18,404 nt of DNA. Origin: a virus. The notes beneath the pieces were generated by a model. The model was not told the DNA's origin and did not search any database. It worked only from the letters and a program-made list of their open reading frames with translations. The translations under genes were made by a program, and so were the position numbers. This document shows, one piece after another, positions 395 to 18,404 of the stretch (positions are counted from its first letter, which is position 1; each line of letters begins with the position of its first letter). The stretch lies in UHGV virus genome UHGV-0256895. The stretch is one strand, 5' to 3'.

Positions 395-876
395 GACAGC
401 AGCCCTCCCACCGTTTTACTGATATCGCTTAAGGCAGACGTTGCCGTGTCCTGCAGATTATTCAGTTGCGCACTGAGATCACCGAACATATCGGACAGGG
501 ATTCATCCACCCGTTTGAGCGACAGGGTGAACTCAATCCGGCGCGGCATACCGTCGCGGAAAAACTCCGTTTTAGTCTGATTCAGTCCCTCAATCACATA
601 CATGCCGTAAATCGTGCCGCTGCCTTCAATCAGGGGCCATGCTTTCCCCTGTTCTGCCATCTGCTCCAGTACCAGCAACGACAGCCTGCCGCCTGTTATC
701 TCCGGCATAAGAACACCAGAAAGCGTCAGCATGTCGTTGTCCGGTCCCAGAAACTGCGTGGACGGACGTCGGTTGACCCGGCTGTTTGCCGCATGTCGCC
801 AGCTGCGTTGATACTGCAGTTCCTGATACGGCACAGTGCGCAGCATAAACACGTACAATCCCAGCACCATCATCAT
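391..876 (-). CDS. U: Tail protein gpU
   Basis: 161 aa ORF in the track, immediately downstream of the tape measure gene in the conserved FETUD order; size matches P2 gpU. Confidence 0.8.
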   Translation of the reverse strand: MMMVLGLYVFMLRTVPYQELQYQRSWRHAANSRVNRRPSTQFLGPDNDMLTLSGVLMPEITGGRLSLLVLEQMAEQGKAWPLIEGSGTIYGMYVIEGLNQTKTEFFRDGMPRRIEFTLSLKRVDESLSDMFGDLSAQLNNLQDTATSALSDISKTVGGLLS

Positions 877-4379: not shown

Positions 4380-4433
4380 TTTGCTGTCCTGTAAATTGGG
4401 TTCTGGCGCGGTATCCCGCGCCGTTCAGATACA

Positions 4434-4949
4434 TCAGAGGCCGAGGGCGTTGCGGTGCGCTTCCATCAGGTCCACACCGTCCACAATTTCCACCATGTTG
4501 ATAAGGTCCACTTCATAGAGCACCTCACCATTGATGGTCAGCTTCGCGTAGCTGTTGGTACTGGTCACTTTGGTGGTGTTGCTTTCGCCCGTCTTCCACT
4601 CGCCGGAATCCACTTCTTTGTGACGTCCACGCACCACAAGCTCCACGGCCTGCACTTCCCCGGTATCGTCACGCTGGATAGAGCCGGTAAAGCGCAGCTG
4701 AATGCCATCTACCGTGGCTTTGCCCATCTGCTTAAACAGCAGCAGTTCAGTACCACCAATGGAAAATTCTGTGTCCAGCGCACTGTCATCAAGCCCCAGA
4801 TCCACATCCACTGCACCCGGCATTCCGCCGCCGCGATACTTCTCATATTTGCGGGTGAATTTCGGCAGCGTCAGCGACTCAACGATCCCCTGCCAGTTGT
4901 TCCCGTCGTTAAACAGGTTCAGATGTTTTAATTTGCGTGGTAAAGCCAT
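4434..4949 (-). CDS. FII: Tail tube protein gpFII
   Basis: 171 aa ORF (MALPRKLKHLNLFNDGNNWQGIVESLTLPKF...), between sheath and E; size and sequence consistent with P2 FII. Confidence 0.9.
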   Translation of the reverse strand: MALPRKLKHLNLFNDGNNWQGIVESLTLPKFTRKYEKYRGGGMPGAVDVDLGLDDSALDTEFSIGGTELLLFKQMGKATVDGIQLRFTGSIQRDDTGEVQAVELVVRGRHKEVDSGEWKTGESNTTKVTSTNSYAKLTINGEVLYEVDLINMVEIVDGVDLMEAHRNALGL

Positions 4950-5235
4950 GTTGTCCCCTTACGCGCTGACCTGGCTGGCGAAATTCACCAGGTACTGATC
5001 GGTGATGCGCTGGCGCAGCATCAGATTTTCAAGTGGCGGCACTGGCGTGTAGTCATAGTCGATGGTGAGTTTTCCGGCTTTCAGCGTGTCTTTGTCGTTC
5101 ACCGACTCATCCAGCCAGCAATCACCACCAATGAGATAGCCCTGACTGACCAGGCTGCGTATTTTGGCGCGGATACCTTCGATAATGTCGCGGGCCAGCG
5201 ACGGGTTAAGCGGTTTATCCACCGCCCACATGTGT

Positions 5236-5315
5236 GCTTCTGCCATTGTGTCCGTCAGCACCTGCGCCGTGCGGGTGTAGTTTTCGAAGGCAAAAAGCGG
5301 ATCATCGCTCAGACA
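5236..5315. repeat. Left copy of a perfect 80 bp inverted repeat inside FI (native-orientation copy)
   Basis: Plus 5236..5315 is the exact reverse complement of 5518..5597 (checked base by base, 80/80); encodes [27 protein letters not shown] in the minus-strand sheath frame. Confidence 0.9.
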
Positions 5316-5517
5316 TGCACTTGGTCTGCGTGCCAAAATTGATGAGCAGACCGGGTGGCACAAAAGCCTGTCCAACGTGGGCGTGAACGGTGTCACCGGA
5401 ATTTCTGCAGATGTGTTCTGGGATCTGCAGGACCCGGCAACCGATGCAGGTCTGCTGAACCAGAACGACGTCACCACGCTTGTGCGTAAAGACGGTTTCC
5501 GCTTCTGGGGTTCCCGC

Positions 5518-5597
5518 TGTCTGAGCGATGATCCGCTTTTTGCCTTCGAAAACTACACCCGCACGGCGCAGGTGCTGACGGACACAATGGCAGAAGC
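5518..5597. repeat. Right copy of the perfect 80 bp inverted repeat inside FI (inverted copy)
   Basis: Reverse complement of 5236..5315; encodes the same 26 residues on the plus strand, continuous with the inverted segment 5317..5517. Confidence 0.9.
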
Positions 5598-6248
5598 GTG
5601 TCCCAGCCAGTAAAGTCGGGCCAGATCAGCATTCCTTCGCGCTGGCTGAAGTTTTCACGGTAAGTGATCGCCTCCTGTACCGTCTTGCAGCCATACGCTG
5701 ACAGGTAAGCAAACCCACGCAGGCTTTGCGCCACGCTCAGCAACTCAGTCGCAACGGCTTTGTTATCGTGACCTGGCACGCCGAGAATGCGCGGTTTAAC
5801 GCCGAGCTGTGACTGGGCAGATAACAGAGCTTTCATGCCTGTTTTTTTACCTTCAGCAGTCACTGCGCCGATGATATTGGTCGTGGTTTCTTCTTCCGTT
5901 TCACCCTGCGGCACACGCACAACAACGGTCACGGGTTTTGCCTGGTCAGCGATGGCATCCAGCGAACGGGCCAGCGTGCCGGACTCACCCGCTTTACCGC
6001 TGGCAGTCAGCACATCAGTGATCAGCACAGGTTTGTTAAGAGGAAACATTTTTGCATCGGCATCATCGCCCGTGCAGACCATGCCCACGATGGCGGTGCT
6101 CACCGTGGTAATGGATCGGGTGCCTTCGTTGACTTCAACAACGCGCACCCCGTGGTGGTAATCCTGAGCCATAGTGGCGAACCTCCTGATTGGATTAGGC
6201 TTCGCCCTATGTTGAAGTGATTGTGCCTGACAAACAGCTAAGCGCAGT

Positions 6249-6266
6249 TGTACCGTTATTCACACA
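6249..6266 (-). promoter_or_regulatory. Candidate Ogr-type late promoter element (TGT-N12-ACA) for the FI-FII-E-T-U-D operon
   Basis: TGTACCGTTATTCACACA, centred about 85 bp upstream of the FI start codon (6172); P2 late promoters carry this dyad near -55. The motif alone is expected by chance a few times in 18 kb; position is what supports it. Confidence 0.4.
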
Positions 6267-6314
6267 AAATGACGGTATTTGTCTACTTGCAGGGATAATC
6301 AAAATAATGCTGAT

Positions 6315-6887
6315 TCAGGGGGATTCATTACTCTTATTTGCCGGAAATTTTCTATAAATTGTGGAAACACCCACATCAAAAATCAGTGCAATACGCTGTC
6401 TTGATTCTCCGGCCTCGAGTAAACGCCCAATCTGTGCCCACTGTTCGGTGGTCAACTTAGGACGGCGTCCACCTACTCTGCCTTTGGCACGAGCTGCAGC
6501 CAGCCCTGCCCTGGTACGTTCAACTATCAGTTCGCGTTCCATTTCAGCCAGGGCACCCATGACATGAAAAAAGAAACGGCCCATTGGGGTACTGGTATCA
6601 ATACTGTCAGTCAGGCTTCGGAAATTCACACCACGCTGGCGCAACTCCTCTATCAGCGTAACAAGATGCCGCATACTGCGCCCCAACCTGTCCAGCTTCC
6701 AGACAACCAGCGTGTCTCCTGCCGATAGTGTCCTGAGCAGCTTTTTCAGCCCCGGTCTGTCGGACTTAGTGCCACTGATTTTATCCTCAAAAATCCGCTC
6801 ACATCCCGCGCAGTTCAGTGCATTACGTTGCAAATCGGTGTTCTGGTCATTTGTTGACACGCGTACATAGCCAATAAGCATGATCAT
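6315..6887 (-). CDS. Serine DNA invertase of the Gin/Pin/Cin/Hin family
   Basis: 190 aa ORF starting M(IM)LIGYVRVSTNDQNTDLQRNAL..., the characteristic N-terminal catalytic motif of the invertase subfamily of serine recombinases, with a C-terminal HTH-like region; true start may be the third Met (6881). Located beside an invertible tail-fibre segment. Confidence 0.85.
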   Translation of the reverse strand: MIMLIGYVRVSTNDQNTDLQRNALNCAGCERIFEDKISGTKSDRPGLKKLLRTLSAGDTLVVWKLDRLGRSMRHLVTLIEELRQRGVNFRSLTDSIDTSTPMGRFFFHVMGALAEMERELIVERTRAGLAAARAKGRVGGRRPKLTTEQWAQIGRLLEAGESRQRIALIFDVGVSTIYRKFPANKSNESP

Positions 6888-6936
6888 CCCCCTGAATAAA
6901 AACCGGAGATGATGCCAGTTAGCCGTTATCTCTGCA

Positions 6937-6962
6937 TTTTCATAAACGTTGGTTTGGGAGAG
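6937..6962. other. Invertase crossover site 1 (gix/hix-like, 26 bp)
   Basis: TTTTCATAAACG TT GGTTTGGGAGAG: two AAAC/GGTTT half-sites around a central dinucleotide as in hixL/gix; sits between the invertase start and the silent tail-fibre segment; matches site 2 at 19 of 26 positions in inverted orientation. Confidence 0.6.
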
Positions 6963-7298
6963 GGAGCAAAATTAGGCGCAGCGGTGTGTGTGGCCGGCTC
7001 TACAGGCTATATGACTATCCCGGCAATGGTCGCCGGGAAAGAACGGGTGATCATATTGCAGTGGTTTGGTGCTGCTACAACTGATTATGTGACACCAGTA
7101 ACTGCGAATTTCCCTATTGCATTCCCAAATGAGTGCATGATTCCGTTATTTAGTGATGTATCAACTGGGGCAGTTGATTTGAGTTCTACAGCCGCATATA
7201 GCTTAGCGGTGGGCCGATCATACTATACGACGGTAACAAGAACTCAGATTACATGTGCTGGCTACGGTGGCTTTAGAGTTTTCGCGATTGGATGGTGA
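6951..7298 (+). CDS. Silent alternative tail-fibre C-terminal segment (Sv'), no start of its own; would fuse to the constant part of H after inversion
   Basis: Plus frame from the crossover core gives [69 protein letters not shown]...GFRVFAIGW, sharing ILQW, FPIAFP and GGF..FA.G motifs with the expressed H C-terminus. The track ORF 6909..7298 covers it. Confidence 0.6.
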
Positions 7299-7303
7299 TT
7301 AAT

Positions 7304-7723
7304 ATGTTTTATTCTGCAAAAGAAAATGCGTTCTACGCTGATGAGCTAAAAAGTATTTATGAAAATGCAGGTAGCTGGCCTGACGATGCCGTTGAAGTAG
7401 ACTATTCCGTATTCGTTGAGTTTGCCGGAGAATCACCTAACGGAAAATTACGCGCTCCTAATTCTGATGGTTTACCTGAATGGATAGATATTCCCGAACC
7501 AACTGAAGAGGAAATTATTGCGTTGGCAGAAGCCGAAAAATCGCGACTGCGTGCTTCAGCTGACTCTGAAATAGAATGGCGGCAGGACGCCGTTGATGCG
7601 GGGATCGCGACGGAAGAAGAAACTGTTTCATTAGCCGAATGGAAAAAATACCGGGTGCTGCTGATGCGAGTTGATACAGCAGACCCGGACTGGCCTACTC
7701 CTCCGGCGACTCAGGCCAGTTGA
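7304..7723 (+). CDS. Alternative tail fibre assembly protein (Tfa, U'-like), silent orientation
   Basis: [28 protein letters not shown]... parallels the N-terminus of the expressed Tfa ([30 protein letters not shown]...); lies directly after the silent fibre segment. Track ORF starts 4 codons earlier at 7292. Confidence 0.7.
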
Positions 7724-8126
7724 TATCTGGTGCGCTGGATATGTCCACAGATTCCAGCGCATCGAGATAATCCAGCCACTCGTTATACTGGGCCTTCTCG
7801 TCGTCTGTAAGTCGCCCCAGCGCAGCTTTACCCGGCCACTGCTTGCTGTTTATATACTCATTAGCCTGATCGATACGATACTGTTTTTCAGCTTCAGCTG
7901 CTGCGATTTCCTCCTCATGGCTTAAAGGTGGAATGTCTACCCATGCCGGCATTCCATCCTCAGTAGCTCCACGAGTTTTACCCTCTGGTGGCATCCCCGA
8001 ATATTCAGTGAATGTCTCATCTGAGACGGCTATGAGATCGTCAGGCCAGTTTCTACTCGCTTCATAAACATCTCTGAGCTCATCAGGGTAGAAAGCGTTA
8101 TTTAATGCTGAATAAAAATAAGCCAT
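7695..8126 (-). CDS. G: Tail fibre assembly protein (Tfa, gpG / Mu U-like), expressed orientation
   Basis: 143 aa ORF immediately downstream of the tail fibre gene; Tfa-like N-terminus; converges on the alternative Tfa with a 29 bp 3' overlap. Confidence 0.75.
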
Positions 8127-8129
8127 TTA

Positions 8130-9545
8130 TTAATACCCCACAGCAAAATAGTTAAACCCGCCAGCGCCGATGGATGATTCAGCGTTGGTTCCTGTCTGAT
8201 AAGCGCGTAGCTGGAAATTAGTTCTCGTAAAATCCTGGGCGGTTAACGCAAAACCTTGACCTGTACCGCCAACACTCTGGTCTGTTGCAACAACACATAG
8301 CGCCCTGGTTGGAAACGCAATCGGGAATGATACTGTTTCTGGGGATGTTTTCGTTTTGGCTATTGCCCATTGAAGAATTAACCCGCCTGGCAGGTATTGA
8401 TACCCCGAATCGGCTCGCTGATTACCAAATGAAGACATGTCCGGAATCTGTCCGGAACCAGTGCCAACATTTTTTTTTGCCGCATCTCCTAAACCAAGGT
8501 ATGCGAGAAGACCAGCGACATCCTTTCCACTCAAATTAGTCAGCGTATTGTCCAGCGGTTGTTTACCTGCCAGCGCATTAAGCATTGTCGTGGCAAAGTT
8601 CGGATCATTCCCCAACGCCGACGCCAGTTCGTTCAGTGTATCCAGTGCCGCAGGTGCAGAACCTACCATTGCTGCAATCGCCGATTTCACAAAAGCCGTG
8701 GTGGCAATCTGTGTATTGTTGACCGACTGTGCAGCAGTGGGGGCTGTTGGCGTTCCGGTGAGTGCCGGACTCGACAACGGCGCTTTCAGTGCCAGCGCAT
8801 TGTTAATGGTGGTACTGAAATTCGGATCATTGTTAATGGCTGCGGCTATTTCTTTCAGCGTGTCCAGCGTGGCTGGCGCACCATTAATAAGAGCCGTCAG
8901 TGCCGCCTGAACAAACGCGGTGGTCGCAACCTGCGTGGTGTTATTCCCTGCCGCTGGAGTTGGCGCTTTTGGTGTCCCGGTAAACGTCGGACTTTCTTTG
9001 GGTGCATACTGTGAATGCGGGTCCGGTGCGGCAAGATGTTTTGCCATCTGATCATCCACGTACACCTTCAGCTCCAGTACCTTGTCATCCACATACTTGC
9101 GGGTTGCCAGCACTACGGCAGGGTCGATTTTCAGGGTGATATTGTCCGTGCTGCTGGTAATCAGCACCATGCGCACGGTCTGGGTACGCCCGCTGCCTTC
9201 AGCCAGTTGCGGCTTATAGCTTTCCGGGCAGTTGCCCACGGCAATCAATGCCCCGGACTCATCAAACAGGCCCACTTCACGTATCCACCAACCGCCCTCG
9301 TTTTCAGGGATCACCTGTTCAGCAATAATCTGGCTGCTGTTCTGCGGGTCGATATAGAGCATATTCAGCGCAGCCCGGCGTTTCTCATTTACCAATGCTG
9401 TCTGCTTGGCGTCCGGCGTTGGCAATGTTCCGCCGCCATCGCCCACCGCCATATGGGTAATTTTTAGCGGCACACCGAGCGCGGCGGCGCTGGCAAGTTT
9501 CGCCGCGCCAATATCCGTCAGCAGGGTATAAAATTTTGTGCTCAT
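8130..9545 (-). CDS. H: Tail fibre protein gpH (constant N-terminal part plus currently expressed variable C-terminal segment)
   Basis: 471 aa ORF; N-terminus MSTKFYTLLTDIGAAKLASAAALGVPLKITHMAVGDGGG... is typical of P2-type fibres; two tandem repeats of about 72 aa; crossover site embedded about 116 codons from the stop. Confidence 0.85.
   Translation of the reverse strand: MSTKFYTLLTDIGAAKLASAAALGVPLKITHMAVGDGGGTLPTPDAKQTALVNEKRRAALNMLYIDPQNSSQIIAEQVIPENEGGWWIREVGLFDESGALIAVGNCPESYKPQLAEGSGRTQTVRMVLITSSTDNITLKIDPAVVLATRKYVDDKVLELKVYVDDQMAKHLAAPDPHSQYAPKESPTFTGTPKAPTPAAGNNTTQVATTAFVQAALTALINGAPATLDTLKEIAAAINNDPNFSTTINNALALKAPLSSPALTGTPTAPTAAQSVNNTQIATTAFVKSAIAAMVGSAPAALDTLNELASALGNDPNFATTMLNALAGKQPLDNTLTNLSGKDVAGLLAYLGLGDAAKKNVGTGSGQIPDMSSFGNQRADSGYQYLPGGLILQWAIAKTKTSPETVSFPIAFPTRALCVVATDQSVGGTGQGFALTAQDFTRTNFQLRAYQTGTNAESSIGAGGFNYFAVGY
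8484..8509. other. Invertase crossover site 2 (gix/hix-like), inside the tail fibre gene at the constant/variable boundary
   Basis: ATCTCCTAAACC AA GGTATGCGAGAA on the plus strand; inverted relative to site 1; falls on the GLG codons of H (..LAYLGLGDAAKK..), the point where the silent segment (..[12 protein letters not shown]..) would join in frame. Confidence 0.6.
8556..8990 (-). repeat. Tandem duplication of about 72 codons inside the tail fibre gene
   Basis: Protein segments ..NTTQVATTAFVQAALTALINGAPATLDTLKEIAAAINNDPNFSTTINNALALKAP and ..NNTQIATTAFVKSAIAAMVGSAPAALDTLNELASALGNDPNFATTMLNALAGKQP are clearly homologous. Confidence 0.7.
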
Positions 9546-10147
9546 GGATTCACTCTCATTGTGTCAATAACATGGACCGCCCCGCCTTCATGCGCGGTGC
9601 CGCCGGAAATAATTGTTTCGTTGATATACGGATAGATCGTGATTTCTTCGCCAAGATAGCTGGCGGCCCCCACCCAATGCGGACCGCTGGTCTGCAGATT
9701 GATGGACATGCCGATCATGTGACGGCTACATGGTTTGGCATCGCTTATCAGCCGCTCAAGTTCCAGATAGGTATCTTCAGTGATGCCCTGGTCCTGCACG
9801 CCGATATCCAGGCGAAACGTGCCCGGTGTTTCTCCGGTCTGCCACCACTCAATAATGCGGATCAGGAATCCGAACGGTTCCACCACCCGCCGCACGGCAC
9901 TGGTAGTTCCTTTATGCTGATGAATATAAAAAGCATCCTTCACTACCTGGCGTTTGACGCTTTCTGTCCAGCCCTCGTCCCAGCGATCCACAGAGAACGC
10001 CCAGGCGAGATAAGGCAGGAAGCTGACCGGACAGGTAGCCGGATTCCACAAGTCACGCAGCGGCACCTGCAGATCAGAAATCCCGCTACAGGTTTGCGCC
10101 AGTCGGCGCTCCAGTGAAGTTGAACCCGGTGGCAGCAGACTATTCAT
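9542..10147 (-). CDS. I: Baseplate assembly protein gpI
   Basis: 201 aa ORF between J and H in the conserved V-W-J-I-H order. Confidence 0.75.
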   Translation of the reverse strand: MNSLLPPGSTSLERRLAQTCSGISDLQVPLRDLWNPATCPVSFLPYLAWAFSVDRWDEGWTESVKRQVVKDAFYIHQHKGTTSAVRRVVEPFGFLIRIIEWWQTGETPGTFRLDIGVQDQGITEDTYLELERLISDAKPCSRHMIGMSINLQTSGPHWVGAASYLGEEITIYPYINETIISGGTAHEGGAVHVIDTMRVNP

Positions 10148-11048
10148 CCGTTCCTCCGTTGGTTACGCTCCACTGCGTACATGATGCCGCCTGTGTTTTG
10201 TTCAGGACCACATCCGCCAGCGGAGAAGCCAGTTCCACACGTTGAACACCCTCAACATGCAGAGCAGCAAAGATGGCGCTACGGCGAATATCCCGACCAA
10301 GCCTCGTCTGGCTGGCAATGTACTTCTGCAGACTGGCTTTTGCCGCTGCCATTACCGGCTCTGCTTCCGGTCCCGGATAGAGAAAAATGGTGGCTTCCAC
10401 GCGATACGGGATGATTTCTGCGCTGCGAACCGTAAGACGGTCAGCCACCGGGCGGACGTTCTCACTGTTCAGAGCTTTTTCCACCACGTCCAGCAGGTCT
10501 TTTTCTGCAGTTCCATCGCCTTCGCGGCTAAGGACAGTCAGCACCACCTCTGCAGGTGCCGGGCTGGTTGCACTGGCATCCGCCACCCGACCGTCGGCGC
10601 TTCGGGCATGAAATTCATAAGCTGCAGTTGGCCCCGCAACTGAAAGCCCTTCAAAGGCTGCAGGCACACGCAGGCGTAACGCTTCATCGCTTTCCATCAC
10701 AGCTGCAACGGGCGGCACAGCGTCATTATCAGCAGGCGTCACCGTCAGGCGTTTCACGTTGTAGTTGGCGGCGAGCTGGTCCAGATCGCCCCCTATGGCA
10801 TAAGCCACCATCACCGCCTGCGCAGCTTCGTTAATGCGCTGGCGCAGAAGCAACTCACGGTAAGCATTCTCCTGCAACAATTTGGTGACGGGTTCAGATT
10901 CCAGTTCCAGCGTGCGGATCACTGCTTCCTGCTCATCTTTCGGATGAAGCGCCACAAATTCTGCCTTGCGTTCGGCAAGCAGCGTCTCAAAGTCCGGCAC
11001 ATCCACAATCTGCGGCGCAGGCAACTGCGAAAGGTCAATCACTGCCAT
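10140..11048 (-). CDS. J: Baseplate assembly protein gpJ
   Basis: Track ORF 10140..11087; the likely start is the internal Met giving MAVIDLSQLPAPQIVDVPDFETLLAERKAEF..., which resembles the remembered P2 gpJ N-terminus; C-terminal ..GRDIRRSAIFAALHVEGVQRVELASPLADVVLN.. also conserved. Confidence 0.8.
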   Translation of the reverse strand: MAVIDLSQLPAPQIVDVPDFETLLAERKAEFVALHPKDEQEAVIRTLELESEPVTKLLQENAYRELLLRQRINEAAQAVMVAYAIGGDLDQLAANYNVKRLTVTPADNDAVPPVAAVMESDEALRLRVPAAFEGLSVAGPTAAYEFHARSADGRVADASATSPAPAEVVLTVLSREGDGTAEKDLLDVVEKALNSENVRPVADRLTVRSAEIIPYRVEATIFLYPGPEAEPVMAAAKASLQKYIASQTRLGRDIRRSAIFAALHVEGVQRVELASPLADVVLNKTQAASCTQWSVTNGGTDE

Positions 11049-11394
11049 TCTCTGCTCCTGTTGATACGGAAAGGGAAACAGGCACACCGTTATTACGCCG
11101 CCCGGTCAGCTCCACCACCATTGAACCGTCAAAATTGCTGTTAATGGTGATGGAATCCAGCGTCAGCCGTGGCTCCCAGCGACTCAGCGCCACATACACT
11201 GCCGACATGACCTGCAGGCGTAATGCCGGATTTTGTGGCTGGTCTATCAGTGCCGACAGCAGGGAACCATATTCCCGACGGGCAATGCGGCTACCCTGCG
11301 GCGTCAGCAAAATGTCCCGCACCGACTGGCGCAGATGATCAATATCAGTAATGGCTTTACCGCTGGTATTGTTCATCCCGCTATAAAGCGTCAT
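11035..11394 (-). CDS. W: Baseplate wedge protein gpW (gp25-like)
   Basis: 119 aa ORF MTLYSGMNNTSGKAITDIDHLRQSVRDILLTPQGSRIARREYGSLLSALIDQP... with a W/gp25-like pattern; overlaps V stop and J start. Confidence 0.8.
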   Translation of the reverse strand: MTLYSGMNNTSGKAITDIDHLRQSVRDILLTPQGSRIARREYGSLLSALIDQPQNPALRLQVMSAVYVALSRWEPRLTLDSITINSNFDGSMVVELTGRRNNGVPVSLSVSTGAENGSD

Positions 11395-11969
11395 ACCGGG
11401 CCTCCGGTTGTGTCGCCGCCTTTCAGGACGTCAGTATGCTGATGCGCATCAACCACGATCCCGTTAGAACTCATCGCTCCGCCGCCCTGGGTAACGCCAC
11501 CATTGATCACCACTTCGCTGTTAATGCGCGTGCGGTCAGCCTCCAGTACAAACTCACTGGTTTTCATGGTGATGTTGTCAGCGGCCTCAATGACCATTGA
11601 TTTGATGCCCCTGACATACCAGCGCCCGGTAGTGGGTTCGTATTCAAACCAGCCGCCGTCAGGATGTTCTGTCACGCAGGCGTCTGCCGACGTCGACGGT
11701 GGTGCGAACTGATTCGAATAGACAGCGGGCAGCGCAAAGGCAGTTTCCAGATTGCCGCCCAGACTCAGCAGCACCACCTGCTCACCTTCCGATGGTCGCC
11801 ACCATGTGCGGGCATTCCCGGCACGCAGCGTCAGCCAGCTGATCCAGTTGGTTTCAAGCTCGCCCGTTTTCACCCGGCAAAGCCAGTTTTCCCGGTCCAC
11901 TTCGGTGACTACACCAGTGCGGATCAGGTTGGTGATAAGGCGCATGATTTCGGTTAGTTGTGCGTTCAT
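11391..11969 (-). CDS. V: Baseplate spike protein gpV
   Basis: Track ORF runs to 12077 with a TTG start, but similarity to P2 gpV begins at the internal ATG (11969): MNAQLTEIMRLITNLIRTGVVTEVDRENWLCRVKTGELETNWISWLT... Confidence 0.75.
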   Translation of the reverse strand: MNAQLTEIMRLITNLIRTGVVTEVDRENWLCRVKTGELETNWISWLTLRAGNARTWWRPSEGEQVVLLSLGGNLETAFALPAVYSNQFAPPSTSADACVTEHPDGGWFEYEPTTGRWYVRGIKSMVIEAADNITMKTSEFVLEADRTRINSEVVINGGVTQGGGAMSSNGIVVDAHQHTDVLKGGDTTGGPV

Positions 11970-12015
11970 AGGGTTAGGTTGCACGGACCTTGAATCTATG
12001 GCATCAATACGTCCT

Positions 12016-12033
12016 TGTGTGGTAAATGACACA
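12016..12033 (-). promoter_or_regulatory. Candidate late-promoter dyad (TGT-N12-ACA) upstream of V
   Basis: TGTGTGGTAAATGACACA, centred about 55 bp upstream of the V start codon, which leaves almost no leader if the P2 geometry holds; overlaps the putative promoter and 5' end of the opposite-strand cargo ORF. Motif alone is weak evidence. Confidence 0.3.
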
Positions 12034-12064
12034 AATACAATTCCAATCAAAGAAAGGTAAAAGA

Positions 12065-12595
12065 ATGAGCCATCCAATTGATTATTACGCTATAGAAGAA
12101 CACGCAAGAATAATTGAGCAATTATGCTGTTCATCTGAATTTTATTTACAGCGTATATATTCCACACAGAAAGTATATGATGGTTCTATAGTAACTGAAT
12201 TTGAAATGGAGGAGTTATCGTACAACGGATGGTTGGAATATACCATTAGCAACAATCTTATTAGCCTTTGTACAAAACTACGAATTCTCCAAGACACTAG
12301 TGAACATGAGTGGAACCCAGATTACTCACCTGAGAAAGAAGCATTTGAAGAACATGAAAATATACTTTTTGTTATAGATGGTCATGTTAAAGATTCTATA
12401 CGCGAATGCTGCAATAAAATTATTCACGCATTAAGTTTTGAGTTAACAAAAAAGACCGGCAAAAATGGAATAAAATATTGGGACGGTTCTATTATTGCTT
12501 CTGGGGTTCAAAACAAAAAAAACTGGAAAATTAAAATAGACCTTTTCCCTTTTTGCCAAAGCATAAAAAGTTATTTAAGTTTATTAAGAGCGTAA
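12065..12595 (+). CDS. Hypothetical protein, AT-rich cargo (moron) ORF in the S-V junction; function unknown
   Basis: Track ORF 12026..12595; the RBS-supported start is ATG 12065 (GAAAGG 7 nt upstream), giving a 176 aa soluble, acidic protein (MSHPIDYYAIEEHARIIEQLCCSSEFYLQRIYSTQKVYDG...). Strongly AT-rich and on the opposite strand to all flanking tail genes; no similarity I recognise. Confidence 0.6.
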   Translation: MSHPIDYYAIEEHARIIEQLCCSSEFYLQRIYSTQKVYDGSIVTEFEMEELSYNGWLEYTISNNLISLCTKLRILQDTSEHEWNPDYSPEKEAFEEHENILFVIDGHVKDSIRECCNKIIHALSFELTKKTGKNGIKYWDGSIIASGVQNKKNWKIKIDLFPFCQSIKSYLSLLRA

Positions 12596-12600
12596 ACATT

Positions 12601-13053
12601 CTAATTTTTCATCAATAAATACTTTAAAAGTAAATCTCTTACTTCATTTTCAGTATGTTCATTTAAACCCAGCAATTTTCGGGATGGATACTTAATGACT
12701 CCCCCCTTTGGACTGACGCGATCGCGCAGACCGTAGTGATGAACACGGGCAATACGCTGTACCTTACCTTCAAACTGTACGCTGGCAGAATCCGCGCTGG
12801 CGGCAGTTCTCAGGTATTTTGTGGTGCGCAGCTTTGCAAACATCTGACGTTTGATGCGCCCCTTCTTGCTGCGTGCTGTTACCCTGCGCGGCTCATAACT
12901 GCTGCCATCTGGATTGCGCTGCATCCTGATATTCTGCTGCTGTGTCCGGCGCAGTTCCTGCGCCAGCTGGCGCATCATTCGGCTTCTTGCGGCTGGTTCC
13001 AGATTCGCCAGCAAAGCACTCAGCCAGTCGTCCACCTTCTGCAGTTCAGCCAC
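12601..13053 (-). CDS. S: Tail completion protein gpS
   Basis: 150 aa ORF with ..LEPAARSRMMRQLAQELRRTQQQNI..NPDGSSYEPRRVTARSKKGRIKRQMFAKLRT..VQRIARVHHYGL.. resembling P2 gpS; the last ~20 codons lie in AT-rich DNA. Confidence 0.8.
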   Translation of the reverse strand: MAELQKVDDWLSALLANLEPAARSRMMRQLAQELRRTQQQNIRMQRNPDGSSYEPRRVTARSKKGRIKRQMFAKLRTTKYLRTAASADSASVQFEGKVQRIARVHHYGLRDRVSPKGGVIKYPSRKLLGLNEHTENEVRDLLLKYLLMKN

Positions 13054-13477
13054 GTTTCACCGTCCACATTTCTTCAGGTTCATCGGGTTCCGCTACTGCT
13101 TCAACGCTCGACACACTTCCGTCAGTGCTGACCAGCACACGTTCCGTCAGTTGCAGGTTGAGGCTGATATCACAGACATCGTTGCGCAGAATATCCACCT
13201 CAAAGGTGAATAACTTTTCCCGTAACGCCGGATTATTGATGGCATCGGGCTGGTTATCACGCAGCCACAGCAAAACCGGGGCCATCAGCAGATTCTGGTC
13301 GCCGCTGAAATCCTCAATCACCACGTTGAGGGTATAACGGTACTCCCATGACATGGAGCTGGCCCCCGTGGCAACCAGCGAACCGTTATCCACAAACAGA
13401 TGCAGCTTATCCGGGTTATTGCGGACATAAGGCACTGCTTTATTGAGGGCGTGGCGCAGGGATTGTGGTTTGTTCAC
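13046..13477 (-). CDS. R: Tail completion protein gpR
   Basis: Track ORF 13046..13498; likely start is GTG 13477 with AGGAG 7 nt upstream (..VNKPQSLRHALNKAVPYVRNNPDKLHLF..); gpR-like. Confidence 0.75.
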   Translation of the reverse strand: MNKPQSLRHALNKAVPYVRNNPDKLHLFVDNGSLVATGASSMSWEYRYTLNVVIEDFSGDQNLLMAPVLLWLRDNQPDAINNPALREKLFTFEVDILRNDVCDISLNLQLTERVLVSTDGSVSSVEAVAEPDEPEEMWTVKRG

Positions 13478-13730
13478 TGTTTCGCTCCTGACACGCAATA
13501 ATCATGTCCACTTTGTCTGCACAGACCGCCCAGGCGGCCTCCGTTTCATCCAGCAATGCGTTCAGATCACCGTTAGTGCGCGGCGCTGCCTGCTCCAGCC
13601 GACACGGCGTCACTCGCGGACAACCACTGACGGTAAGCTGCACCTCCGGTGAGTGCCGGACGTTCCCGCAGCCGGATAATGTCAGCAGGCAAAGGAGTAT
13701 CAGCCCAGCGGCGTAAATCCTCGTTCTCAC
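13440..13730 (-). CDS. lysC: Outer-membrane lipoprotein spanin (LysC/Rz1-like o-spanin)
   Basis: 96 aa ORF with signal peptide and lipobox (MRTRIYAAGLILLCLLTLSGC), Pro-rich mature part; starts inside lysB in another frame and runs past its stop, overlapping the R start. Confidence 0.65.
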   Translation of the reverse strand: MRTRIYAAGLILLCLLTLSGCGNVRHSPEVQLTVSGCPRVTPCRLEQAAPRTNGDLNALLDETEAAWAVCADKVDMIIACQERNSEQTTIPAPRPQ

Positions 13731-14001
13731 GTTTCAGTTCCTCGATCCGGTGTTGTCGTTGTCTCAGCAGCGCGCTGGTTTGTTCTGCTTCGGCATAGAG
13801 CCGCGCCTGCTCCCGGTTATTGGTTTCAGCCAGAATGGACAGACTGATCAGCTGGCTATTTTTCTTCGTTAGTTCGTGCGCTTTACTTTTCAGCGCCGTG
13901 CGCTGCGTTTCGATGGTGTGGCTGGCGCTGTTAAGCCGCCACGACTGCCAGCCCAGCGCAACGAGTGCCAGCGCCGCCACTACCGCCAGCGCACGCGTCA
14001 T
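13573..14001 (-). CDS. lysB: Inner-membrane spanin (LysB/Rz-like i-spanin)
   Basis: 142 aa; N-terminal TMD (ALAVVAALALVALGW) followed by a charged coiled-coil-like region; directly downstream of the endolysin. Confidence 0.7.
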   Translation of the reverse strand: MTRALAVVAALALVALGWQSWRLNSASHTIETQRTALKSKAHELTKKNSQLISLSILAETNNREQARLYAEAEQTSALLRQRQHRIEELKRENEDLRRWADTPLPADIIRLRERPALTGGAAYRQWLSASDAVSAGAGSAAH

Positions 14002-14513
14002 AATCCAGCTCCTTTAAGGCACCAGGCCATCTCCCGCGCACGGCGGTTATCCAGCCCCTGATTAAACACACCTTTCACATAAACCCAGCGCGGCAACTGT
14101 CGGCACGCTTCTGCCCAGCGCCGCTGATTGAGCAATTTCACCAGCGTAGAACTGCAGGCATTGCCCGTTCCCACGTTGAAGGCAAACGACACCGTAGCGT
14201 CATATACCTTCTGCGGCGGCTGTTGCTTCACACACCTTTCCAGCGCCCGCTCCACACGCAGCACGTTGGAAATAAGCCCTTCTGCTGCCTGTCGTTCCGT
14301 GATTGTTTTGCCGGGAATGACGCCCGACGTATTTCCAATGCCGTCGGTCCAGACACCCGCGCTGCACTGATACGGCTGCAGACGACAACCTTCGTAATCG
14401 GCAATCAGTTTCAGCCCCTCCACGGAGGTGTGAAGCTGCTGAAACCCCGGCAGCGTGGCAGCAATAGCCAGCACGGCCCCGACAAGGCAGCGTTTAACGA
14501 TTGATGGATTCAT
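13998..14513 (-). CDS. K: Endolysin gpK, lysozyme-like with N-terminal signal-anchor-release (SAR) domain
   Basis: 171 aa; weakly hydrophobic Gly/Ala-rich N-terminus (CLVGAVLAIAATLPG) then a lysozyme-like core (..EGLKLIADYEGCRLQPYQCSAGVWTDGIGNT..); start overlaps the holin stop. Confidence 0.8.
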   Translation of the reverse strand: MNPSIVKRCLVGAVLAIAATLPGFQQLHTSVEGLKLIADYEGCRLQPYQCSAGVWTDGIGNTSGVIPGKTITERQAAEGLISNVLRVERALERCVKQQPPQKVYDATVSFAFNVGTGNACSSTLVKLLNQRRWAEACRQLPRWVYVKGVFNQGLDNRRAREMAWCLKGAGL

Positions 14514-14709
14514 AGTCCTCCCGCGAAATCTGCCCGTCGCGCAGAAGCTGGTAGGCTTTGTGTTTGTAGTACCAGTTGATAGCCAGCATCAGCACACCAA
14601 TCATCAGGCCGCCCAGCGTTGATGCATCCTTGATGGACAAATCGCCCAGCCAGGCCAGCACGACGGCGATGCAATACGTGATAAAGGCGCTGATTCGCTC
14701 AAGCGTCAT
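14494..14709 (-). CDS. Y: Holin, class II / pinholin-like (two TMDs)
   Basis: 71 aa with two hydrophobic segments (ISAFITYCIAVVLAWL; GGLMIGVLMLAINWYY) and a charged C-terminus, immediately upstream of a SAR-type endolysin. Confidence 0.7.
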   Translation of the reverse strand: MTLERISAFITYCIAVVLAWLGDLSIKDASTLGGLMIGVLMLAINWYYKHKAYQLLRDGQISREDYESINR

Positions 14710-14712
14710 AAT

Positions 14713-14916
14713 TCAGTCCCATAGCTGGACGGTCTGCACGGTGGTGGTTGTCGGAATGTCCGGCAGCTCCACCTGCAGCCCGTGAGGTAAAAAGGGGCCG
14801 TATTCGGCAAGCCCCGGATTTGCCTTCAGTACCTGCTCCGTGACACCCTGCGTGCGCCCGTAATGACGCCAGCAAAGTGCGTCCACCGTGTCATACTGAT
14901 GCGCACGCACTTTCAT
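14713..14916 (-). CDS. X: Tail protein gpX
   Basis: 67 aa ORF, same size and position as P2 gpX between L and the lysis genes. Confidence 0.7.
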   Translation of the reverse strand: MKVRAHQYDTVDALCWRHYGRTQGVTEQVLKANPGLAEYGPFLPHGLQVELPDIPTTTTVQTVQLWD

Positions 14917-15380
14917 CAGATAAGCTCCACTGTGCAGTGCGGCGCATCCTGCACCCGGCTGATGGCCCAGCGGGCGTCACGCCATAAATCACCGCTTGCT
15001 TCCGCCAGTTCCTCGCCTCGCTTCGCACCGGATGCCGTGGCGTCATAGTCCTGGTAACGTTCGTTGAGCATGGCGCGTGCCCAGCAGTAAACCGCGTTGA
15101 AATAGTGCTGAATGCGCTCGCTTTTGCCGTCCAGTTGTTCCGCCGGGACTTCTGCCAGCGAGGCATACCCCAGCATCTGCTGGCGTCTGCGAAACTCATA
15201 CAGCTCTGCGTTGACCTCCGAAATTGCCGACAGCGCAACCTGCTTTAAACGCGGCTGCGTCACCGTGCCGTCAGTGCGCATGACACTGCGAAACTCCGAC
15301 AGGTCCACATCAGGCCAGAACGGCGTATTTCTGATGATTTCCGCCTGTTCCGGTGCCTGTTCTGGCGCAACAAACTTCAT
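14916..15380 (-). CDS. L: Head completion/stabilisation protein gpL
   Basis: Track ORF 14916..15443; likely start ATG 15380 with AGGAG 8 nt upstream (MKFVAPEQ...); ..NAELYEFRRRQ..LWRDARWAISRVQDAPHCTVELI resembles gpL. Confidence 0.8.
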   Translation of the reverse strand: MKFVAPEQAPEQAEIIRNTPFWPDVDLSEFRSVMRTDGTVTQPRLKQVALSAISEVNAELYEFRRRQQMLGYASLAEVPAEQLDGKSERIQHYFNAVYCWARAMLNERYQDYDATASGAKRGEELAEASGDLWRDARWAISRVQDAPHCTVELI

Positions 15381-15475
15381 GCTGCTTTCTCCTGAAATAA
15401 AGGGCGGTGGACGGGGTTTTGATGTGGCAGTGCCTTTCGCCACCCCGTGCCGCCCGTGCGCGGGGGCACGTTCTG

Positions 15476-16068
15476 TCAGCGGCTATCATTGCGCAGTCTG
15501 CGCTCCAGCTGCTGTTTGTCTTTTTTCACGCCACAGCGGGGATCGAGCTGTAACGCATGGTTGAGATGATTAAGGGCGGAAGCCGGATTACTTTCACTCA
15601 GGACAGCGCCAATCGCTTTATGCAGACGCGCCCGTGACTGGTCCGGCATATCCAGACCGTCTGTCAGCTCCAGCGTCTGCAGCAGCAGATCGACATCAAA
15701 GCCGGTAGTGGCAAGCATTGCGCTCTGCGCTGCGTCTGCCATTTCCTCTGCCAGCACGGTCTGCACGTTGCGGTTACCCAGCGGCATCACCCAGCCATGA
15801 CGCAGGGCATGACGCCCGATCTCCAGCGCTCCGACATAATCTCCGGCATCAATGCGCCACAGCATCACGTACATCAGCACGTCATCCTGTTGAGCGCCTC
15901 CGGCAGCCAGGACACCCTCCGCCCAGGCGGCGTATTTCGGCAGCAGCTCCACCTTGATTTCCGCTTTTTTGACCGTGGACTGAACGCCCTTGAGACGGCG
16001 GCGGTCTTCTGCCAGTTGCAGCAGCATCAGGTCATAGCCCGACGCGTGGCGAACGCTGCGCGCTGCTG
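15476..16068 (-). pseudogene. M: Terminase small (endonuclease) subunit gpM body; first 18 codons are separated from it by the N/M inversion
   Basis: Minus frame ..SAARSVRHASGYDLMLLQLAEDRRRLKGVQSTVKKAEIKVELLPKY.. is gpM-like from 16068 down to the stop at 15476 but has an in-frame stop just upstream of 16069; the native start (MSLSPARQHRLRVQAECQ) lies on the plus strand at 16276..16329. The track ORF starts at the internal Met 16027. Confidence 0.7.
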
Positions 16069-16272
16069 ATCACCCGTCTGGATAACCTGTCCATTTACTG
16101 GCAGGAAGACACCCGCCGCCGTTCGGTTATCGACAACCCGAAACGTGACCGGATTGAAAATTTTGAATCCGTTAACGAAGCCTATGTGGTTGAGGACTAC
16201 CGCTGCGCCGCACTGGTGGAAAACATCCAGATTGGCGACTTCAGCGCCGCCGCAGCAGAAACCGGAGCGTAA
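16069..16272 (+). other. N: Displaced C-terminal 67 codons of capsid gene N, on the opposite strand
   Basis: Plus frame ITRLDNLSIYWQEDTRRRSVIDNPKRDRIENFESVNEAYVVEDYRCAALVENIQIGDFSAAAAETGA* matches the remembered C-terminus of P2 gpN; the frame is open without a start codon and is absent from the track. Confidence 0.7.
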
Positions 16273-17047
16273 ACCATGAGCCTGAGTCCCGCACGGCAGC
16301 ATCGCCTGCGCGTTCAGGCTGAATGTCAGACAGCAGCTCACGACCGCAAATCACCACCAGATCGTCATCGTCCTGGTAGACCACGTCGATAAGCTCATTG
16401 ACCGCATCCATCACCACGGCGTCCAGGTTGGCATATTCGCCACCTTTCCCGACTTTCACCGCACCCGGTGTGGTTTCACCGCCCGTGGTGGTGCTGCCCA
16501 TGACGTGATCCGGTGCATCCTCACGGATTTTCTGCAGCCAGCCTTTGTTCACATCCTGCAGCAGCGGGTTTTCGCTACGGTTGGAGGTTTTCGCACGCTT
16601 CACGCCGTTAAAGCCGATCATGATGCGGTCCAGTGCCTGGCGTTTCACGATGGCGTCACGGATACGCACCTGGAAATCCTGAAACTTCGCCCACAGGTCC
16701 AGCTTCGCGTAGGTCAGCACCGTGTCAAAGTTGGTCTGTTCGCATTTGTATTCCACATCGATCATCAGCGTCGGATCGACAGGTTCACGCTCTTTCGCGG
16801 TGGTGTCAGTGGTTCCGGCAATGGTGCTGCCAACACCCAATCCAAGCAGCTGACCGGACTGCTCAGTCACTGGCGTGACGTTAATCAGCGTCAGGAAAGC
16901 GGCGGACTGCTGGATCTGGTCTTCCAGCGTCTGCTGCACAGACGGCTCTACGGTGAACTTGCTGGACAGTTCCTCAACTGCCACACCGTTCAGACGCGCC
17001 AGTTGCTGCAGGTAAGCGTTAAAAGCAAAACGGGTATTCTTCTTCAT
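16241..17047 (-). pseudogene. N: Major capsid protein gene N, N-terminal 239 codons intact; C-terminus displaced by the inversion
   Basis: Track ORF 268 aa; MKKNTRFAFNAYLQQLARLNGVAVEELSSKFTVEPSV...LVVICGRELL is gpN-like to about 16331; the last 29 codons (SDIQPERAGDAAVRDSGSWFTLRFLLRRR) are antisense of the displaced M start and N end. Confidence 0.8.
16276..16329 (+). other. M: Displaced first 18 codons of terminase small subunit gene M, on the opposite strand
   Basis: ATG 3 nt after the displaced N stop, MSLSPARQHRLRVQAECQ, resembling the gpM N-terminus; joins in frame to the minus-strand M body through the inverted repeat when the segment is re-inverted. Confidence 0.6.
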
Positions 17048-17063
17048 TGGGTTTTATGCTCCA

Positions 17064-17807
17064 TCAGCAATTGGTCAGAGTGTCAGCGGGGGCGTTGCCG
17101 CCTGTTGCACGCTGGCGGTAGTCCTGGCGGCTGTCTTCATGACTCAGCTTATCCACCAGTTCGTTAAAGGCGGTTTGCTGCTCCTGCAGAGCAGTCTCCA
17201 GCTCAGACAGGCGTTCTTCCTGCTCAGACAGGGATTTTTCGGTGCGCGTGCTCAGGTTCTGCTGCTCAGTGGCGACCAGTTCCACGGCCTTATGCACATC
17301 AGAGAACCGGACGTCATCGGACTGCTCTTTTTTGGTAAACAGCGCCGTGACGCGGGCAAACAGGGACGGCTTGTCCTCCTGGATTTCTTCCAGTTCGATC
17401 ACCGTTTCCTCTGCAGCGGTAAAAAGATTGGCAGGATTCTGCTTGCGGTTTGCCAGCGGGTTATGGGCTGCACTGGCGCTGAATGTCAGCATTTCCGTAC
17501 CCAGACTGGCGGGATCATCAGTGGCAGCCAGGCCGACCAGGTAGGCTTTGCCCGTATCAGCAAACTTCGGGCTGACTTCCATAGAGGTGAATAATTTCTG
17601 GCCTTTTTTCACCAGTTCCACCAGGGACTCCGTTGGCTCAACGTCGGCATACAGTGCCATCTTGCCTGCCAGCGGACCTTCCGCGATTTCTTCAGCAAAC
17701 CCTGCGGTTTGTGTGGTTGTCGGTACAAATACCGCGCATTGTTTCACTGCCCCCATCACCGCAACCATAAGGCTCCAGTAAGTTTTTTCTAACGGAGCAC
17801 GGCTCAT
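17064..17807 (-). CDS. O: Capsid scaffold protein gpO (body); native 5' end uncertain
   Basis: Track ORF 17064..18029; from about residue 108 (..GFAEEIAEGPLAGKMALYADVEPTESLVELVKKGQKLFTSMEVSPKFADTGKAYLVGLAATDDPASLGTE...TGGNAPADTLTNC) it is clearly gpO-like. Upstream of about 17710 similarity is lost; the first 74 codons of the track ORF are antisense of terminase P. Confidence 0.7.
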   Translation of the reverse strand: MSRAPLEKTYWSLMVAVMGAVKQCAVFVPTTTQTAGFAEEIAEGPLAGKMALYADVEPTESLVELVKKGQKLFTSMEVSPKFADTGKAYLVGLAATDDPASLGTEMLTFSASAAHNPLANRKQNPANLFTAAEETVIELEEIQEDKPSLFARVTALFTKKEQSDDVRFSDVHKAVELVATEQQNLSTRTEKSLSEQEERLSELETALQEQQTAFNELVDKLSHEDSRQDYRQRATGGNAPADTLTNC

Positions 17808-17853
17808 GACAGTGAAAGCAAAGCGTTTTCGCATCGGGGTGGAAGGTGCCACT
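17806..17853 (+). other. O: gpO N-terminal motif encoded on the opposite strand (possible third inverted fragment)
   Basis: Plus ATG 17806: MTVKAKRFRIGVEGAT matches the gpO N-terminus as I remember it (MAKKVSKFFRIGVEGDT); after codon 16 similarity ends. The 52-codon frame (to 17964) is too short for the track. Confidence 0.45.
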
Positions 17854-17921
17854 AGAAAGTTGCAACCGTTCACAGCTGGAAAAAACGCGACAAGTGGGGT
17901 GACTATGGGCCGCTGGATCAG

Positions 17922-18404
17922 ATGCAGCTCACCACCGCCGCCCGCTACTGCCAGCTCATTATGAAGGAGCACAAAGAAGGGAAAGATTTCAAAGAAATTG
18001 ACCTGCTGGCGCGCCAGTCGGAGCGCCACGCGCGGATCGGCAAGTTTAACAATGGCGGCAACGAAGCCGACTTAAACCCTAACGTCGCCAACCGCAACAA
18101 AGGGCCGCGCCGTCAGCCGGAAAAGAATGTTTTCACCGATGAACAGATTGAGAAGCTGGAAGAAATCTTCCATTCCTCCATGTTCAACTACCAGCGCCAC
18201 TGGTGGGAAGCCGGAAAAACCAATCGCATCCGCAACCTGCTGAAGTCTCGCCAGATCGGCGCGACCTTTTACTTTGCCCGTGAAGCCCTGATTGACGCCC
18301 TGCTGACCGGACGTAACCAGATTTTCCTTTCCGCCAGTAAGGCACAGGCCCACGTCTTTAAGCAGTACATCATCGACTTCGCCAAAGAAGTCGAGGTGGA
18401 GCTG
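17922..18404 (+). CDS. P: Terminase large (ATPase) subunit gpP, N-terminal part; runs off the window edge
   Basis: Plus frame open from 17856 to the window end; first ATG 17922 ([20 protein letters not shown]...); contains a Walker-A-like ..[40 protein letters not shown].. Not in the track because it lacks a stop in the window. Confidence 0.75.

Follow-up and report, generated by a model that had tools for sequence, protein, structure and literature searches.

The window examined here (UHGV-0256895; the whole stretch of DNA that was analysed, 18,404 nt) corresponds to the late region of a prophage of the P2 type and is 99.6-100% identical to Cartapus, an Escherichia phage of E. coli LF82. Short segments within several of its virion genes read on the wrong strand, which raises the question of whether the prophage is degraded, whether it has undergone an undescribed inversion process or whether the sequence itself is at fault. 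The initial annotation offered all three readings, of which the last was favoured by the evidence, an intact twin having been found in an independent assembly.

The inverted segments reported inside the sheath gene, the capsid/small-terminase pair and the scaffold gene were confirmed where they had been placed. Each block matched the opposite strand of both Cartapus and the parent scaffold described below at 100% identity (E 1e-76 to 1e-145), the remainder being collinear. The blocks measured 154-282 nt, and not about 90 to 280 bp as first estimated. Their positions, and those of the genes and sites discussed below, are given in Table 1.

An intact twin, and exact parent, of the window was identified in a public metagenome as XUQI22-1_SAMN14445755_METAG-scaffold_333 (ENA ERZ28659622), referred to below as scaffold_333 (record positions 12423-31215). 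Among 153 billion indexed gene positions this was the sole long contig encoding the exact tail-fibre protein of the window. The same protein was found in only two indexed contigs, from which we infer that scaffold_333 and the window come from one sample. Identity between the two was 100% in every collinear block and in every inverted block, and three block replacements in scaffold_333, each following the rule 'keep to A, insert the reverse complement of C..B, resume at D', regenerated the window in full (18404/18404 bases) with no other change. Outside the blocks, the comparison with the intact twin revealed no substitutions, frameshifts, IS elements or simple deletions over 17.7 kb. The sheath, capsid, small terminase and scaffold protein genes are intact in scaffold_333 (lengths in Table 1), all of whose genes were called full length, and the statement that all other genes of the window are intact was thereby upheld. 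The 469 nt that are absent from the window are present in scaffold_333, and the intact allele therefore exists in that sample's data.

Table 1. Positions of the inverted blocks, affected genes and invertase system in the window. P followed by numbers denotes positions in the intact parent, as distinct from gene P
Feature	Position in window	Length	Strand	Parental origin or remarks
Event 1, inverted block, sheath FI	5316-5597	282 nt		Reverse complement of parent P 7148-7429
80-nt perfect inverted repeat, event 1	5236-5315 (left arm); 5518-5597 (right arm)	80 nt		
Event 2, inverted block, end of capsid N and start of small-terminase M	16060-16323	264 nt		Reverse complement of parent P 17950-18213
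Event 3, inverted block, start of O and O-P intergenic region	17701-17854	154 nt		Reverse complement of parent P 19861-20014
Tail sheath gene, gpFI homologue	4959-6172		-	Split; 390 aa in parent
Small terminase gene, gpM homologue	15476-16059		-	Truncated; 216 aa in parent
Major capsid gene, gpN homologue	16324-17047		-	Truncated; 352 aa in parent
Capsid scaffold/protease gene, gpO homologue	17064-17700		-	Truncated; 277 aa in parent
Large terminase gene, gpP homologue	17855-18404		+	Runs off window; start codon and first 34 codons deleted (event 3)
Serine DNA invertase	6315-6881		-	Intact; Resolvase E 2e-53, HTH_7 E 1e-15
Invertible tail-fibre cassette	6937-8509			Crossover sites, 26 nt, at 6937-6962 and 8484-8509, 19/26 complementary

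In event 1, 241 nt of the sheath gene were replaced, with a net change in length of +41 nt, and the adjoining 39 parental nt (P 7430-7468, a hairpin) were lost. The 80-nt repeat at this locus is an inverted duplication in which the same parental nucleotides appear once forward and once within the inverted block; it was thus produced by the event and is not a pre-existing site. Event 2 replaced 405 nt (net change -141 nt) with the loss of 19 nt (P 17931-17949, a hairpin more stable than any other in the region) on one side and of 122 nt (P 18214-18335) on the other. The block of event 3 contains codons 1-16 of O plus 105 nt upstream; here 443 nt were replaced (net change -289 nt), with the loss of 148 nt of O and of a further 141 nt comprising what was left of the O-P intergenic region together with codons 1-34 of P. 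The segments are therefore inverted, as had been reported, but they are not simple inversions between inverted repeats, given the parental nucleotides that were also deleted: the events are block replacements with loss or duplication of flanking sequence.

All six junctions were blunt, sharing 0, 1, 0, 0, 0 and 1 nt, where the chance of at least 2 shared nt with overlap-free joining is approximately 0.16 per junction. None of the six showed microhomology; mismatches occur in the 7-nt overlap that BLAST gave at 5591-5597. As to the inverted repeats that were said to bound the segments, a scan of the boundaries found only the self-made 80-nt repeat of event 1, events 2 and 3 having nothing beyond chance 8-mers. 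No restriction site common to the junctions was found when their sequences were read by eye for a ligation signature, and the breakpoint coordinates, in the window and in the record, showed no regularity pointing to scripted editing. Breakpoint proximity to sites that vary among related phages, taken to stand in for branch points of an assembly graph in a mixed sample, was uninformative, with 10-15% of sites varying in events 1 and 2.

The events disrupt five essential virion genes, fragments of which were confirmed by Pfam searches: those for the sheath, the capsid, the small terminase, the large terminase and the scaffold. The genes initially listed as affected were all hit, but the list was incomplete, as it omitted the large terminase, whose beginning was removed by event 3; the start of P lies at L001 18624 in Cartapus, and L001 18587-18726 is absent from the window. 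In the sheath gene, the N-terminal 191 native codons (6172-5598) enter the inverted block and reach a stop at 5471, while the C-terminal 118 native codons (5315-4959) are left with no start. The capsid gene retains its first 241 native codons, which continue into the inverted block to a stop at 16241, with a Pfam match that reaches only position 230 of the 327-position profile. The small terminase gene has lost its start and approximately its first 22 codons, of which 16 lie within the inverted block, with 19 nt deleted. Only the C-terminal 212 codons remain of the gpO homologue, in which the Pfam GPO match begins at profile position 63.

Damage to five essential genes is what would be seen in a domesticated or defective prophage undergoing ordinary decay. 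However, the absence of any point difference from the intact twin beside three complex rearrangements does not fit a time-dependent process, and three complex inversions on their own are unlike the accumulation of mutations. Prophages of the Cartapus type are, moreover, active, encapsidated genomes having been measured for LF82 (PMC9928086), and the lesions are common to no related strain among approximately 1000 E. coli genomes. Simple decay, as the initial annotation had envisaged it, is accordingly very unlikely indeed.

The window also encodes an intact serine invertase of the Gin/Cin/Pin family, and since all three events invert short segments, off-target action of this enzyme on secondary sites in the late genes had been put forward. 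Serine invertases carry out conservative strand exchange at a 2-nt core. The events were instead non-conservative, with 19-148 nt deleted and 80 nt duplicated, and the twelve parental breakpoints matched the 26-nt crossover sites at 9-13 positions, which is no better than the background (mean 11.5, 95th percentile 14). The tail-fibre cassette is the only natural substrate of the invertase here; flipped in four of 31 related loci, it was the only segment ever found inverted among them, no small inversion having been detected outside it in the 371.5 kb aligned. An origin in invertase action was refuted by the sequence gained and lost at the boundaries and by the background level of the breakpoint matches, and its probability is practically negligible.

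No trace of the rearranged version was found elsewhere. Approximately 1000 complete E. coli genomes carrying these genes gave no megablast match spanning a junction, an exact scan for the junction 32-34-mers found none in GTDB genomes, IMG/VR or JGI metagenomes, and an exact look-up of two chimeric ORF proteins showed neither to be on record. The junctions were also absent from all 24 related loci checked, which were collinear wherever an event site was reached. Among contigs encoding an identical tape-measure protein, every listed one that extends to the sheath gene carried the 390-aa sheath. Searches by way of four proteins (invertase, tail-fibre assembly protein, alternative fibre tip and tape-measure protein) for more contigs of run SRR11413006 that might likewise end at the breakpoints yielded none from that run, and the contigs they did yield were of use solely as further intact controls. 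A Logan contig encoding the exact tail-fibre protein, presumably of the same sample as scaffold_333, stops within the hairpin deleted in event 2, at a distance of 3 nt from breakpoint A of that event, which shows that breaks do occur here when these data are assembled; the contig follows the intact allele 3 nt beyond the junction rather than ending at it. The initial annotation had named long reads with all three loci in the intact orientation as evidence against the inversions, and equivalent data were in effect supplied by the independent assembly, which is otherwise 100% identical to the window.

The breakpoints adjoin unusually stable DNA hairpins (P = 0.0006 by rigid-shift permutation; 0.0009-0.0035 with other window sizes), one of which is more stable than any other in the 18.8 kb. 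This association argues for a structure-sensitive process over random corruption; it is the single observation left unexplained, and the only one pointing to real events. It would be accounted for by real rearrangements in a sub-population of the prophage, arising in a hairpin-provoked burst of template switching and return or by hairpin cleavage and end joining, an explanation that we regard as unlikely. A single lineage would then have suffered three hits to the late region, possibly within one aberrant round of replication, and the occurrence of three events without a SNP would suit a single catastrophic event. In the four-point template-switch model, forward copying proceeds to point 1, the reverse complement of point 2 to point 3 is copied and forward copying resumes at point 4 (Loytynoja & Goldman, 2017; PMC5453318). 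Each event is exactly a product of this kind, event 1 being of type 3-1-2-4 and events 2 and 3 of type 1-3-2-4, both of which are known in real genomes (PMC5453318).

In the form of their products, and in having point 1 ahead of point 4, the events thus agree with switching and return; support from annealing was lacking, the six switch points showing neither microhomology nor pre-existing inverted repeats. The common mechanism that had been suggested, template switching at short inverted repeats, was accordingly borne out in its geometry but not in its repeats. E. coli is without efficient non-homologous end joining, which also counts against real rearrangement, as do the intact allele in an independent assembly of the matching sample, the course of the Logan contig beyond the junction and the confinement of the junctions to this one genome among those searched. 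It is distinctly unlikely that the blocks are real and stem from a hairpin-provoked process of switch-and-return (or cut-and-rejoin), independent of microhomology, that hit one lineage on three occasions, for example within a single aberrant round of replication, left no point mutation and inactivated the sheath, the capsid, both terminase subunits and the scaffold together.

Chimeric molecules made in vitro, by strand-displacement amplification or as structure-dependent library artefacts, and then assembled as genuine are a slimmer prospect again. Most chimeras formed in MDA join nearby segments in inverted orientation and lack the stretch between them (85% of 475; Lasken & Stockwell, 2007; PMC1855051), which resembles the arrangement seen here, and the link of library-preparation chimeras with inverted-repeat and palindromic DNA (PMC10908179) fits the hairpin association. 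However, 93.5% of the inverted joins made by phi29 in MDA that are <10 kb apart have at least 2 nt of junction complementarity, with a range of 2-21 nt (PMC1855051), whereas none of the six junctions of the window had at least 2 nt, an outcome with a probability of approximately 1e-7 under the MDA model. Each event would further require two matched chimeric junctions 154-282 nt apart, and molecules so rare should not win the consensus at three loci. A literature search on SRR11413006 / SAMN14445755 found neither a paper nor metadata.

Very probably, then, the blocks are an error of sequence construction, or of editing after assembly, and not phage biology. The underlying DNA would be that of an intact, ordinary Cartapus-like P2 prophage, in whose sequence a stretch of 154-282 nt would have been placed backwards at three places, its ends butted without overlap, with pieces of 19-148 nt beside it left out or, at one of the places, a piece of 80 nt used a second time. 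The most likely route would be that a metagenome assembly, fragmented and of low coverage, was joined or scaffolded with short contigs between its breaks turned the wrong way round, and some of these breaks would fall at hairpin-forming DNA. A deliberate or accidental edit of the assembled scaffold would give the same product as misorientation, and without reads the two would look alike. Six blunt junctions are as expected for overlap-free joining, and unlike the products of polymerase switching or annealing. The dropped pieces (19, 39, 122, 141 and 148 nt) are all shorter than the retained inverted pieces (154, 264 and 282 nt), as they would be if small contigs had been discarded below a minimum length; a threshold near 150 nt would account for the pattern. 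The comparison is, however, post hoc, and its chance probability is 1 in 56.

Some observations count against an artefact. The window contains 0 Ns, whereas scaffolders normally leave Ns, and De Bruijn assemblers cannot make overlap-free junctions unless these are present in the reads. The hairpin link is unexpected from random editing and would also be predicted by a real structure-provoked event, and all three events have one topology, which the biological four-point template-switch model allows.

If the blocks are artefactual, the prophage should not be called defective on the strength of this record, and other records made by the same pipeline may hold similar short backwards pieces in conserved phage genes, which automated annotation would take for pseudogenes or 'cryptic prophages'. 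If they are real, clustered, overlap-free, hairpin-associated inversions would represent a kind of mutation as yet undescribed for the prophages of enterobacteria, and a new way in which a prophage can be inactivated.

Among known systems, the tail-fibre switches of the Gin/Cin/Hin/Pin type are represented in this element by its own cassette and invertase gene. The three events differ from such switches in being non-conservative, in having no crossover sites at their boundaries and in never occurring in both orientations among the relatives. Classic quasi-palindrome switching was reportedly described by Ripley. Four-point template switches share with the events an identical product structure, event types that occur in nature and the nearby hairpins; the window differs in the size of its fragments (154-282 nt, with up to 148 nt lost at a flank) and in its net length changes (+41, -141 and -289 nt), in the absence of inverted repeats or microhomology at the switch points and in the occurrence of three events in 18 kb without a point mutation. 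From inverted MDA chimeras it differs in that its junctions come in matched pairs, 0/6 of them with the 2-21 nt of complementarity. Local mis-assembly through misoriented short contigs, the 'inversion' class of assembly error, differs in that the joins of the window contain no Ns. The window shares with it short stretches in the wrong orientation, the loss or reuse of small neighbours and junctions that are overlap-free; an independent assembly that we take to be of the same sample shows the normal arrangement, and in another, apparently made from the same data, one breakpoint coincides with a break.

The window holds the virion and lysis (late) region of a P2-like prophage, starting within gene D and ending within the large-terminase gene P; the minus strand carries most of the genes. 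The sequence matched the P2-like prophage that E. coli LF82 carries, Escherichia phage Cartapus (Peduoviridae, Elveevirus), at 99.6-100% identity; besides three backwards blocks (events 1-3), the sole departure was the invertible tail-fibre cassette, a naturally occurring version that other E. coli genomes also carry (98.5-99.7% identity). The blocks matched Cartapus with E values of 1e-76 to 1e-145, far beyond chance, confirming the three inverted segments described in the initial annotation; they are real features of the sequence as written. In Pfam comparisons the sheath fell into two parts at profile position 99 of 168, the capsid match broke off at position 230 of 327 and GPO was without its first 62 profile positions. 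These breaks had been listed correctly, but the list missed that event 3 also takes away the start and first 34 codons of gene P. The start of the small-terminase gene M was lost as well, yet an in-frame ATG ORF persists that spans the complete Pfam domain (profile positions 1-130 of 130), and an automated annotator could therefore call the gene intact.

Positions of the features discussed (in the window unless another sequence is named)
Feature	Position	Strand	Content
Event 1 block	5316-5597 (282 nt)	opposite to Cartapus	100% identity (pairwise BLAST); sheath gene
Event 2 block	16060-16323 (264 nt)	opposite to Cartapus	100% identity; end of capsid gene N, start of small-terminase gene M
Event 3 block	17701-17854 (154 nt)	opposite to Cartapus	100% identity; start of scaffold gene O, part of O-P intergenic region
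Inverted repeat	5236-5315 / 5518-5597		80 nt; bounds event 1 only
Serine invertase gene	6315-6881		intact
Crossover sites of cassette	6937-6962 and 8484-8509		genuine invertible cassette
Tail-fibre cassette	6937-8509		two convergent tail-fibre-assembly genes, alternative fibre tip
Departure from Cartapus	about 6972-8423		within tail-fibre cassette
Low-GC (0.33) gene	12065-12595	+	between tail genes S and V, opposite strand to neighbours
Remaining gene M ORF	15476-16027	-	183 aa
Event 2 hairpin	L003 reverse complement, 17929-17946		GCCGCCC TCGC GGGCGGC; GC-rich, 7-bp stem, inside gene M; missing from window between 16059 and 16060
Reverse transcriptase gene	L015 (Logan ERR1789778_51), 549-1319		RVT_1, 256 aa; adjoins ogr at prophage end
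Prophage end in parent scaffold	L025, 15853-16636		adjoins smpB

When the exact tail-fibre protein of the window was looked up among 153 billion indexed gene positions, only two contigs were found to encode it: ENA scaffold XUQI22-1_SAMN14445755_METAG-scaffold_333 (L003, 85.9 kb) and L004, a Logan contig from run SRR11413006. Scaffold_333 was 100.000% identical to every collinear and every inverted block, with intact genes for the sheath (390 aa), capsid (352), small terminase (216) and scaffold protein (277), and zero further differences beyond the three events; we infer that both sequences come from the same sample. With P denoting scaffold_333 coordinates in window orientation and rc the reverse complement, the formula P[1913-7227] + rc(P[7148-7429]) + P[7469-17930] + rc(P[17950-18213]) + P[18336-19712] + rc(P[19861-20014]) + P[20156-20705] regenerated 18404 of 18404 window bases. 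Each event accordingly amounts to a block replacement, in which the parental sequence runs to a point A, the reverse complement of C..B follows, and the parent continues from D. Simple inversion of each segment, as first proposed, does not hold, since sequence was lost or duplicated every time: event 1 duplicated 80 nt in inverted orientation and lost 39 nt, event 2 lost 19 + 122 nt and event 3 lost 148 + 141 nt. Bounding inverted repeats, claimed for all three, exist at event 1 only, where the 80-nt repeat was made by the event itself. The six junctions shared 0, 1, 0, 0, 0 and 1 nt; all are blunt, matching the chance expectation of overlap-free joining. Ordinary decay, in which broken genes reflect mutation accumulation in a defective prophage, does not fit three complex events that come without a single substitution, frameshift or IS element against an intact twin, nor the encapsidated genomes that Cartapus itself yields (PMC9928086).

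About 1000 complete E. coli genomes with these genes were matched by junction-spanning queries, but none covered at least 80% of a query, and thus none crosses a junction. Exact junction 32-34-mers were not found in GTDB species genomes, IMG/VR or JGI metagenomes, the two chimeric ORFs tested gave no record, and junction 24-mers were missing from all 24 related loci examined, those reaching the three event sites being collinear there. The sheath was 390 aa in all listed contigs with an identical tape-measure protein that reach its gene. A real sub-population variant is improbable. In the 371.5 kb of P2-like late region aligned from 31 related loci, no small inversion occurred outside the tail-fibre cassette, which was flipped in four of the loci.

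That cassette occurs in both orientations among related loci and also next to tail modules of Mu-like and other types (L018, L023), and thus behaves as a mobile host-range module. The low-GC gene encodes a 176-aa protein (phrog_18838) with no Pfam or PADLOC match. In related prophages the content of this position differs: an AAA_15/AAA_21 ATPase together with HNH (L008, L014), DUF6216 (L007) or uncharacterised 381-429-aa proteins (L015, L016). The site resembles a hotspot for variable cargo or defence. The reverse transcriptase gene of L015, a related P2-like prophage, is probably retron-type cargo. Other prophages of the type found in the parent scaffold (L007-L011) adjoin the Asp-Al_Ex/ybjM side, a different chromosomal locus from smpB, which suggests that close relatives use at least two integration sites.

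Off-target activity of the invertase had also been proposed. Exchange by the Gin/Hin family is conservative. The events are not, and the twelve parental breakpoints agreed with the crossover sites in 9-13 of 26 positions (background mean 11.5, 95th percentile 14), so this origin was rejected.

Breakpoint placement was non-random with respect to DNA structure. The 40-nt window that holds the 19 nt lost between the first breakpoint (A) and the inverted piece of event 2, CGCCCTCGCGGGCGGCCTG, forms the most stable hairpin in the 18.8-kb region (-15.4 kcal/mol, rank 1 of 18,752), and the 39 nt lost in event 1 also form a hairpin (0.9th percentile). A permutation test with 20,000 rigid shifts per event gave P = 0.0006 (0.0009-0.0035 with other window sizes), values to be discounted somewhat as the test was devised after the event 2 hairpin had been seen. 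The association speaks for a structure-sensitive step and tells against corruption that is uniformly random. L004, identical to the intact parent, ends within the event 2 hairpin, 3 nt beyond the first breakpoint; this spot is therefore one where assemblies of the data do break, and because the contig follows the intact allele for those 3 nt it does not indicate the rearranged one. Variable sites cluster in this hairpin among P2-like phages (17926, 17929, 17932, 17938, 17941).

The artefact reading is favoured by the identical intact twin, the junctions found nowhere else and the blunt joins: the blocks are likely an error of sequence construction or of post-assembly editing of the scaffold. 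Starting from these direct observations, together with the event anatomy and the hairpin association, contig breaks at hairpins followed by mis-orientation may have given the blocks, short pieces between breaks being put in backwards and tiny neighbours lost; alternatively, the scaffold may have been edited after assembly. The dropped pieces (19-148 nt) are all shorter than the retained inverted ones (154-282 nt), as a minimum-length cut-off for small contigs would produce, a post hoc pattern expected by chance 1 time in 56. The lack of Ns at the joins counts against construction error, and so does the hairpin association in that it would also be predicted by a real process provoked by hairpins.

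Each event is also formally a switch-and-return product of template switching under the four-point model, event 1 being of type 3-1-2-4 and events 2 and 3 of type 1-3-2-4, both of which are natural (PMC5453318). Chimeras from MDA, another conceivable source, have the same geometry, joining inverted pieces across an intervening deletion; however, 93.5% of proximal inverted MDA junctions have at least 2 nt of complementarity (PMC1855051), compared with none of the six here.
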